63,716 bases of DNA from Candidatus Peregrinibacteria bacterium. GTDB taxonomy: Bacteria > Patescibacteriota > Gracilibacteria > UBA1369 > LOWO2-01-FULL-3. The DNA is taken from positions 1 through 63,716 of the forward strand of contig JACQRJ010000027.1 in the NCBI GenBank assembly GCA_016206505.1, given 5' to 3'. The notes below the pieces were generated by a model. It did no database searches and was not told the DNA's origin. It worked only from the letters and a program-made list of their open reading frames with translations. Positions 26,004 to 27,320 of this stretch are shown here, piece after piece. The translations under genes and the position numbers were made by a program. The stretch's first letter is position 1. Every line of letters starts with the position of its first letter.

Positions 26004-26882
26004 TTAAAAGCTTTCCGCAATTTTCCAAACACCTTTTTCACGGAAAGCCGGAATATTTTGGCGACGGGCGGCATTGGTCACTGCTGGAGCAGACTTGCCA
26101 TTTTTTTTAATGTATTCCGAAAGTGTAATTATTTTTTCACCTTTCAGATAAGCAATACGTTTATGAAAAGATTCAATAAGCGCAAGATAAAGAGCTTTCT
26201 CCATTGTTTTTGTATTTTCACTGTCATTATAATCACGAAAGGCTTTGTAATATTCCTGTTTTTCCCTGTCTCTTATTATCACCATTGGAAATCCCAGACT
26301 CTGAAGCTGAAAACAAATCAGTACGCGCCCGATTCTTCCGTTTCCATCGCAAAATGGATGAATTGTTTCAAAATCCAGATGGAATTTGGCAATTTTCTCC
26401 AGAAAATAAGATGAAACGTCGCTTGTATATTTTGAAATAGCCTCTTCAATCATTAATTCAACATGTTCCGGAGCGGGAGCTATATGAGTTCCAACACGGA
26501 CATATTCACCTTTGCCTCTGAATCGACCGGCAATTTTATCATCGATCACATTGATGAGCATTTGATGCAGAAGTAAAACAAGCTCTTTATCGAGTTCGTT
26601 TGCCTTGGATTTATTGCGGATATAATCAATAACCCGTGCAAGATTTTTTGCCTCGTAGACTTCGCGTAGGGAAAGATCCCTGGCGACCTCCATATCCAAA
26701 AGAATTTTTTCCGTCTCTTTAAGAGTAAGAGTCGAGTTTTCAATGGCGTTTGAATTGTAAACATTTTCCGGCACTTCCGCCTCGTCGATAATAGCCAAAA
26801 GTGAATCCTTGTCCTTGCTCAAGGCATCAAATTCAGTCTTTAACTGCTGTATTTTCTCCCTGATTTGCTTTGGTATTGGCAT
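26004..26882 (-). CDS. Fic family protein (class II, N-terminal inhibitory motif)
   Basis: Fic motif HPFCDGNGRIGR. Upstream inhibitory-helix motif SNAIEN ([S/T]xxxE[G/N]). Confidence 0.9.
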   Translation of the reverse strand: MPIPKQIREKIQQLKTEFDALSKDKDSLLAIIDEAEVPENVYNSNAIENSTLTLKETEKILLDMEVARDLSLREVYEAKNLARVIDYIRNKSKANELDKELVLLLHQMLINVIDDKIAGRFRGKGEYVRVGTHIAPAPEHVELMIEEAISKYTSDVSSYFLEKIAKFHLDFETIHPFCDGNGRIGRVLICFQLQSLGFPMVIIRDREKQEYYKAFRDYNDSENTKTMEKALYLALIESFHKRIAYLKGEKIITLSEYIKKNGKSAPAVTNAARRQNIPAFREKGVWKIAESF

Positions 26883-26980: not shown

Positions 26981-27320
26981 TGGTGGGCCTGCCTGGACTT
27001 GAACCAGGGACCAATCGGTTATGCATCTCACAACCGGTTTCCCGGCCTCTTTCGAGTTTGTAAGCGGGACTATCCCTTGAGTCCCATTGACTGGAACTCT
27101 CTGCCGTCTAGTCTCTACACCTTCCCGCTCATTGAGGGGGCTTGGCTCGGGATTGCCATAATCACATTGTGATTTTAGGTTTCCCCGAATTTGACAGATT
27201 CTACCCCGCATACGCGGGGCAGCCCGTTGATATTGACGCATATCGTGCTAGAAACAATCCACAGCACGAGTTAGCGTCGTATCTTTAAGCCGACTGCTCT
27301 AACCACTGAGCTACAGGCCC
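26981..27320 (-). tRNA. tRNA(CAU), most similar to tRNA-Ile2/elongator Met type, interrupted in the anticodon loop
   Basis: Exon 1 is GGGCCTGTAGCTCAGTGGTTAGAGCAGTCGGCT. Exon 2 is CATAACCGATTGGTCCCTGGTTCAAGTCCAGGCAGGCCCACCA. Joined, they give a canonical 76-nt cloverleaf with the loop CU-CAU-AA. It resembles my recollection of E. coli ileX. Confidence 0.85.
27024..27287 (-). ncRNA. Group I intron (IC3-like, no ORF) in the tRNA anticodon loop
   Basis: Minus-strand core elements GUCAAAUUCGGGGAAACCUAA, GGCAAUCCCGAGCCAAGCC and GGAAGGUGUAGAGACUAGACGGCA match the conserved P4-P6 and P7/P3/P8 cores of the Azoarcus and Anabaena tRNA introns. It ends GAGAUG (omega-G). The IGS-like GGGCUG can pair with exon CGGCU(U). 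Confidence 0.8.

Follow-up and report, generated by a model that had tools for sequence, protein, structure and literature searches.

On the minus strand of the window (the whole stretch of DNA that was analysed, 63,716 nt), a tRNA(CAU) gene is split into a 5′-exon of 33 nt, an intron of 264 nt, and a 3′-exon of 43 nt. The 5′-exon (GGGCCUGUAGCUCAGUGGUUAGAGCAGUCGGCU, 27288–27320, minus strand, as are all exon and intron elements described below) comprises positions 1–33 of the tRNA, ends in C32 U33, and is the same as the 5′ half of an intron-less allele found in a relative (L162). The 3′-exon (CAUAACCGAUUGGUCCCUGGUUCAAGUCCAGGCAGGCCCACCA, 26981–27023) covers positions 34–76 including the encoded CCA, and begins with the anticodon C34 A35 U36 as part of the sequence CAUAA. 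The intron (27024–27287) contains no ORF, starts with UAAAGA and ends with GAGAUG, the last base being the ω-G at 27024. Its assignment to the group I introns, as an IC3-like member, was based on the Rfam family RF00028, on covariation, and on its absence from the syntenic genes of two relatives (L162 and L164). The arrangement of two tRNA halves with 264 nt between them is exactly the one described in the earlier note on this DNA.

The split gene has rpsT (27716–27432, minus strand) on one side and a Fic-family gene on the other, and maf lies beyond rpsT. The rpsT-tRNA-maf order recurs in six other loci (L082, L087, L095, L096, L104, and L151), the Maf proteins of which are 57–71% identical. 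A terminator-like hairpin after rpsT (27398–27379, minus strand) overlaps a weak promoter-like site, TTGGAA-17-TAGAAT (27392–27364, minus strand), which was recognized by its consensus matches about 37 nt upstream of the tRNA; the leader with this site is also kept 5′ of the intron-less allele in L162. The named homologues of the HflX protein belong to Candidatus Peregrinibacteria, Gracilibacteria, and the "Patescibacteria group", and the same exon and intron start were found in a Candidatus Peribacteria MAG (L065), which confirmed the CPR context. Immediately downstream of the tRNA gene comes the Fic/DOC-family gene (26004–26882, minus strand, Pfam E = 2e-19), for which a strong promoter-like site of its own was found (26934–26906, 11/12 match). 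As L162 shows no nucleotide match in the interval from its TauE-like gene to the tRNA, this Fic gene looks like an insertion beside the tRNA gene.

When the two exons are joined, they form a canonical 76-nt cloverleaf with the anticodon CAU, called tRNA(cat) by ARAGORN, the loop of which reads CU-CAU-AA. The survey of relatives for intron-less alleles, which the earlier note had proposed, yielded two. In L162, the closest relative found (HflX 87% identical, flanks of about 80% nucleotide identity), the syntenic gene 3′ of rpsT (L162:14635–14710, minus strand) lacks the intron and is identical to the joined exons at 76/76 positions, and the homology between the window and L162 detected by BLAST breaks exactly at 27288. 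In L164, a more distant relative, the site is also empty and the allele is identical at 73/76 positions, with a compensatory G31A/C39U change. When the junction was moved by a single base to either side, the L162 allele was no longer reproduced, and among the eight anticodon-loop positions, CU/CAUAA is the sole fit to a U at −1 combined with a G at the intron end. Because the intron-less allele equals the joined exons at every position, the insertion site at the DNA level is fixed between U33 and C34, and the splice site after U33 with an ω-G that had been proposed from the window itself is supported.

The split gene was missed by ARAGORN in default mode. In intron mode, the program found the correct intron size of 264 nt and miscalled the gene as tRNA-Leu(taa), i(37,264), that is, with a wrong isotype and with the intron placed wrongly at 37/38, while it called several relatives Ser(aga). 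These Leu(taa) and Ser(aga) calls were rejected on the U−1/ω-G rule and the intron-less allele. The gene is thus invisible to default tRNA finders and mislabelled in intron mode, so that a CPR genome of this kind would seem to be without its AUA-decoding tRNA.

The group I core and the P1 extension

In the covariance-model search, the insert was scored as group I: the match to Rfam Intron_gpI (27274–27043, minus strand) spanned the full model (1–253) with 55.6 bits and E = 2.1e-11, about 6 bits over the gathering threshold of 50. Rfam's own placement of P1 on a hairpin within the intron (P1c, see below) was rejected because this hairpin contains no exon. An explicit P1–P9 model, the folding suggested in the earlier note, was made, in which every pair is standard in the window, and it was evaluated on two alignments, A3 comprising 21 diverse relatives (core P2–P9) and A2 comprising 24 sequences (P1 and its extension). 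In A3, the core including the P3/P7 pseudoknot was paired in 93.1% of the cells, with changes on both sides at 41/55 pairs; the covariation score was 0.488, compared with 0.176 in shuffled alignments (reached in 0/500) and 0.05–0.09 in slid controls. In A2, 89.1% of the cells were paired and the score was 0.434 versus 0.130 (0/500). The Rfam score, the covariation, and the intron-less allele agree on an ORF-less group I intron in a tRNA(CAU) gene, as had been claimed from the sequence of the window.

The 5′ strand of P1 consists of the exon bases C29 G30 G31 C32 U33 and the intron base U+1 (27287–27292), with the U33·G wobble marking the 5′ splice site. The internal guide sequence (IGS) GGGCUG (intron 63–68, 27220–27225) lies directly 5′ of P2. 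The pairs C32–G, U33·G, and U+1·G were invariant in 24/24 sequences of A2, while exon position 31 and IGS base 4 formed AU in 18, GC in 5, and UA in one sequence and were never unpaired. The pairing of the exon CGGCU and the next U with a guide adjoining P2, another proposal of the earlier note, is therefore supported by the covariation of P1 in 24 sequences. The P2 hairpin, CCCCGC-GUAU-GCGGGG (27204–27219), varies in length among the relatives, and its outer helix is paired in 77% of the cells; its loop in the window, GUAU, is not a GNRA tetraloop.

The region 27119–27198, defined by covariation, contains the 5′ strand of P3 (27198–27193), J3/4 AAA, and the P4–P6 domain with P6/P6a, in which a P5 receptor, CCUAAA...UAUGG, occupies 27179–27174 and 27160–27156. 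P3 and P4 were 100% paired in A3, with compensatory changes in 6/6 P3 pairs. The P7–P3–P8 region (27068–27113) consists of the 5′ strand of P7 (GACUA, 27113–27109), J7/3, the 3′ strand of P3 (GGCAGA, 27105–27100), the P8 hairpin (27099–27079), J8/7, and the 3′ strand of P7 (UAGUC, 27072–27068); here 99% of the P7 cells were paired and 7/8 P8 pairs covaried. P3 and P7 make up the pseudoknot that holds the guanosine-binding helix. P9 (27027–27064), drawn from covariation, is formed by CUUAC/GUGAG around P9a (CUC-GAAA-GAG) and P9b (CCGG-GAAA-CCGG), P9 being 97% and P9b 100% paired, with compensatory changes in 4/4 P9b pairs. The intron ended in G|CATAA in 52/52 distinct relatives, which were partly selected on that pattern. 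P10 has at most one or two pairs, C34–G63 and one more in some relatives.

All strings quoted in the earlier note, namely GUCAAAUUCGGGGAAACCUAA, GGCAAUCCCGAGCCAAGCC, and GGAAGGUGUAGAGACUAGACGGCA as well as the guide and the P2 hairpin, were found in the intron, and the Azoarcus strings with which they had been compared were those of the Aol6.Ile2.5Ug seed of Williams (2020). The intron of the window is without P5abc, and has the J3/4 AAA, the P7 strands AGACUA/UAGUC, and a P9 with a GAAA loop, which are IC3 traits. From the core strings and the architecture, both of which correspond to those of the tRNA introns of Azoarcus and cyanobacteria, the subgroup appears to be IC3-like; according to Williams (2020, bioRxiv 10.1101/2020.01.27.920355), such seeds are marked as IC3 in a group I intron database. 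The core was about 64–75% identical to Williams's seeds, with no class standing out as the closest.

A large insertion in the P1 loop, anticipated in the earlier note, is present, with 62 nt separating the 5′ splice site and the IGS instead of the approximately 75 nt given there. This P1 extension (intron 2–62, 27226–27286), modelled from the minimum free energy (MFE) fold and covariation, consists of P1a (GAUA/UAUC), P1b (GACGC/GCGUC), an internal loop, and the P1c hairpin (UCGUGCU-13 nt-AGCACGA). P1 and the extension folded as modelled into a rod continuing P1 (MFE −28.5 kcal/mol, z = −4.62), and P1b and P1c covaried in A2. The asymmetric internal loop between P1b and P1c, GCUAAC...UAUGC in the window, resembles the 11-nt receptor; it occurs as an exact CCUAAG...UAUGG in L133 and as CCUAAA...CAUGG in a freshwater family of introns, and its closing pairs covary (CC/GG, GC/GC, UC/GA). 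The motif lies about one helical turn past the 5′ splice site, and most members carry two GAAA loops, in P9a and P9b. We tentatively propose, as a possibility that we hold to be considerably less probable than its negation, that the P1 extension may function as a peripheral element of the ribozyme rather than being a mere scar, and may carry a GAAA-tetraloop receptor of the 11-nt type on which the GAAA loop of P9a or P9b would dock to give a P1–P9 clamp. Such a clamp, if true, could offset the very weak P10 and the competition of P1 with the anticodon stem. Three same-site introns without the motif (L047, L066, and L068) have a single GAAA loop each. An exclusive association between the motif and the P9a GAAA loop was not found, as a noisy hairpin parser detected GAAA in P9a of 2/21 Leu.3Ug introns without a P1 extension, and L065 and L131, which have the P1 motif and lack the P9a GAAA loop, also speak against it; the sequences in this comparison are phylogenetically related. 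No description of a P1-extension receptor in bacterial tRNA introns was found in the open-access literature.

Related introns and the homing-endonuclease gene

The CT|...G|CATAA geometry was found in more than 50 distinct sequences from metagenomes and phage contigs, several of the latter among them, and the exon of the window is common to 11 loci. Some relatives have introns of about 600 nt, in which the additional approximately 370 nt lie in the P1c loop and contain an antisense ORF of 112–129 aa. All three of the copies scanned matched HNH-endonuclease PHROGs (E down to 2.9e-22), while profile searches of the relatives' ORF against Pfam, NCBIfam, and PDB gave no significant family. The HNH gene is intact in the P1c loop of L086, L104, and L131, frameshifted in L082, and truncated in L142, where stop codons precede the remnant ...NELQKCVLVCHNCHSEIHHPQHELASYL*. 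L142 and the window are identical in the leader, the 5′-exon, and the intron up to nt 31. The window keeps the tail of the HNH gene, ...PQHELASYL* (the last approximately 10 codons), together with its 3′ flank, and its intron has no ORF with any family match.

As regards the two marks of a mobile intron, an endonuclease ORF in a peripheral loop is absent from the window, while a presence/absence polymorphism at the homologous site was found: the intron is absent in the syntenic L162 and L164 and present in the window, L087, L096, L104, and others. Because of the truncated gene in L142, one close relative, and the shared codon tail, loss of the HNH gene is favoured over its gain, and the ORF-less state is best read as the deletion of the endonuclease gene with the RNA helix left intact. 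The intron thus appears, judging from these sequences, to be a decaying mobile element whose homing-endonuclease gene has been lost. Within one CPR lineage, the locus and its relatives together present all stages of the homing cycle at the same site: the empty site, the intact HNH gene, the frameshifted gene, the truncated gene, and the ORF-less intron.

In L104 and L131, the antisense HNH frame extends across the P1 extension and past the 5′ splice site, its end (...SLSRLL*) being in the D-arm; the HNH stop codon thus lies inside the tRNA 5′-exon, and the HNH gene and the exon overlap on opposite strands. The introns of L082 and L086 are near-identical and differ by one A in an A-run, and the resulting frameshift in L082 separates the N-terminal part of the HNH ORF, with the CxxC zinc finger, from the remainder; it represents either early endonuclease decay or an assembly error.

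Same-site introns of 248–254 nt occur in a very abundant freshwater-metagenome family (about 55 loci among L072–L160, e.g. L075, L077, and L113), which has the tRNA(CAU) anticodon stem GAGGA, a P5 without the 11-nt receptor, and the P1 extension motif mentioned above. L077 carries two copies 2 kb apart, and L146 two different split tRNA(CAU) genes. In L092 (MDTG01031237.1), the guide GGGUUG fits the exon of the freshwater family (GAGGACU) better than its own (GCACACU), with which P1 has only four pairs, suggesting that the intron has recently moved to a different tRNA(CAU) gene. The 63 IMG/VR contigs with the P7 core GTAGAGACTAGACGGCA (L001–L063) gave split calls of 24 Leu.3Ug and 14 CAU.5Ug, and also Lys, Tyr, and others. 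L063 was the only CAU.2Ug among them in the initial mapping, and seven contigs called Ser(aga) (L011, L013, L026, L028, L041, L049, and L057) turned out on inspection to be CAU.2Ug. L063 (IMGVR_UViG_3300029288_005873, 441,904 bp, filed as viral) has a same-site tRNA(CAU) intron of 265 nt, the guide of which, GGGACU, covaries with the exon GGUCU; this contig could belong to a huge phage, or it could be a small bacterial genome that was filed wrongly.

Identity of the tRNA and splicing of the intron

Over the full 76/76 nt, the ligated tRNA was 87–88% identical to E. coli genes that are annotated as tRNA-Ile (anticodon CAT), with 66/76 positions shared with ileX, compared with 56/76 and 54/76 for what we take to be the sequences of the elongator tRNA-Met (metT) and the initiator tRNA-fMet, respectively. 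The D-loop AGUGGUUA, the variable loop UGGUC, and the T-loop UUCAAGU are as in ileX. The tRNA has A73, C4–G69, and C5–G68, the latter two of which we assume to be TilS determinants, and there is no C1×A72 mismatch; the paired G1–C72 and the CGG/CCG anticodon stem, which is not GGG/CCC, exclude an initiator tRNA. Owing to the ileX-type similarity and to these features, we read the tRNA as most like tRNA-Ile2(CAU), the lysidine-dependent decoder of AUA. The CAU anticodon alone would equally fit an elongator tRNA-Met(CAU), which is also the label given by ARAGORN and would move the intron to the Met.2Ug class of Williams (2020), but all of the best full-length E. coli matches are tRNA-Ile(CAT), and the closeness to ileX rather than to our presumed metT, the three ileX-like loops, and the C4–G69 and C5–G68 pairs make this identity unlikely.

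With the Ile2 reading of the tRNA, we consider it very probable that the locus is a chromosomal tRNA-Ile2(CAU)-type gene of a CPR (Peregrinibacteria/Gracilibacteria-like) bacterium, split between U33 and C34 by an IC3-like group I intron whose endonuclease has decayed. If the group I paradigm is projected onto the structure, the wobble, the ω-G, the site, the polymorphism, and the decay series obtained in silico, the exon bases C29–U33 and the intron base U+1 would pair with the guide GGGCUG to form P1, opening three pairs of the anticodon stem and placing U33·G as a wobble at the cleavage site. An exogenous guanosine bound at P7 would then attack after U33, after which ω-G264 would replace it at P7 and the 5′-exon would attack after G264. 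Ligation of the exons would produce the 76-nt tRNA with the loop CU-CAU-AA, the anticodon stem would re-form, and C34 would presumably be lysidinylated. The competition between P1 and the anticodon stem predicted by this model counts against our preferred explanation, as do the small margin of the Rfam score, the non-GNRA L2, and the short P10, and the alignment of the exons probably relies on contacts other than P10.

Alternatively, the intron might be a decayed relic that has lost splicing, leaving a tRNA pseudogene whose function is supplied by another gene. The loss of the endonuclease gene, the non-GNRA L2, the weak P10, and the Rfam score near the threshold would agree with such a relic, and the window contains only two other tRNA genes, a second copy elsewhere being possible. 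On the other hand, the core helices are all intact in the window, and the catalytic junctions correspond to invariant columns of the relatives. The exons are fully identical to the functional-looking allele of L162 despite the approximately 20% divergence of the flanks, which implies purifying selection on them, and the split gene has been kept at the locus across a lineage in which even Maf is only 57–71% identical; we therefore regard a relic as very improbable. The last reading follows the intron-mode output of ARAGORN and takes the gene for a tRNA-Leu(UAA), whose 264-nt intron would occupy the canonical 37/38 position and be excised by a protein endonuclease. It can practically be dismissed, as such an intron would end in U instead of G, the class I body with its variable loop of 5 nt is not Leu-like, the insert is group I by the covariance model and covariation, and the intron-less allele, with its CUCAUAA, refutes it.

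Comparison with known tRNA introns

In the earlier note, the insertion site was taken to differ from the known ones, and the known fMet introns were placed 3′ of the anticodon. Neither view stands, since Williams (2020), who described 5292 group-I-split bacterial tRNA genes in 21 classes, four of them classical (Leu.3Ug, Arg.5Ug, fMet.2Ug, and Ile2.5Ug), defined "position 2" as CU/CAUAA, that is, after U33; this is the site of the classical cyanobacterial fMet.2Ug, and the seed alignment also includes Met.2Ug and Ile2.2Ug. In this nomenclature, the gene of the window would be Ile2.2Ug. The statement that tRNA introns of CPR bacteria are poorly described was likewise overstated: 0.49 split tRNA genes per genome were reported for metagenomic assemblies of unnamed phyla (Williams, 2020), and for complete CPR genomes, the presence of group I introns in tRNAs was noted by Lui et al. 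(2021, PMC8172020). Thus, both the kind of intron and its insertion site are already catalogued, and the case leaves the knowledge of group I introns and their tRNA insertion sites unchanged; a possible new detail is the receptor-like motif in the P1 extension.

The Azoarcus pre-tRNA-Ile(CAU) intron (Ile2.5Ug) shares with the window what is probably the same type of host tRNA, near-identical J3/4-P4, P6, and P7 strings, and a P5 receptor of the CCUAAG...UAUGG type. It differs in being inserted after U36 instead of U33, in its 3-bp P1 made of anticodon bases, and in its minimal P9 with one GAAA loop, and it has neither a P1 extension nor an endonuclease. The seeds Gba28.Ile2.2Ug and Sba135.Met.2Ug agree with the window in its probable isotype (Ile2) and/or the anticodon, in position 2, and in U−1 and ω-G, whereas the P1 of both is short and has neither the extension nor the receptor-like motif. 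The core of Gba28 is different (J3/4 UAUA, P4 UCGGU, about 64% identity), so that this intron probably represents a separate lineage that occupies the same position.

The cyanobacterial tRNA-fMet(CAU) introns (fMet.2Ug) have the same anticodon, the same site after U33, U−1, and ω-G as the window, as well as an IC3-type core and a P1 that uses C32, U33, and anticodon-stem bases. The P1 loop of the Tpc1.fMet.2Ug seed, the core of which is approximately 67% identical to that of the window, likewise contains a long hairpin insertion. Some of the cyanobacterial members encode a homing endonuclease (PMC1995217), such as the 655-nt intron of Synechocystis PCC 6803, which encodes I-Ssp6803I. The two systems differ in the host tRNA, which is an initiator in cyanobacteria and Ile2-like with G1–C72 in the window, in the start of the intron, which is CA, mimicking the 3′-exon, in the fMet.2Ug seeds and UAAAGA in the window, and in the endonuclease, which is of the PD-(D/E)XK type in the cyanobacterial introns and an antisense HNH protein in the relatives of the window.
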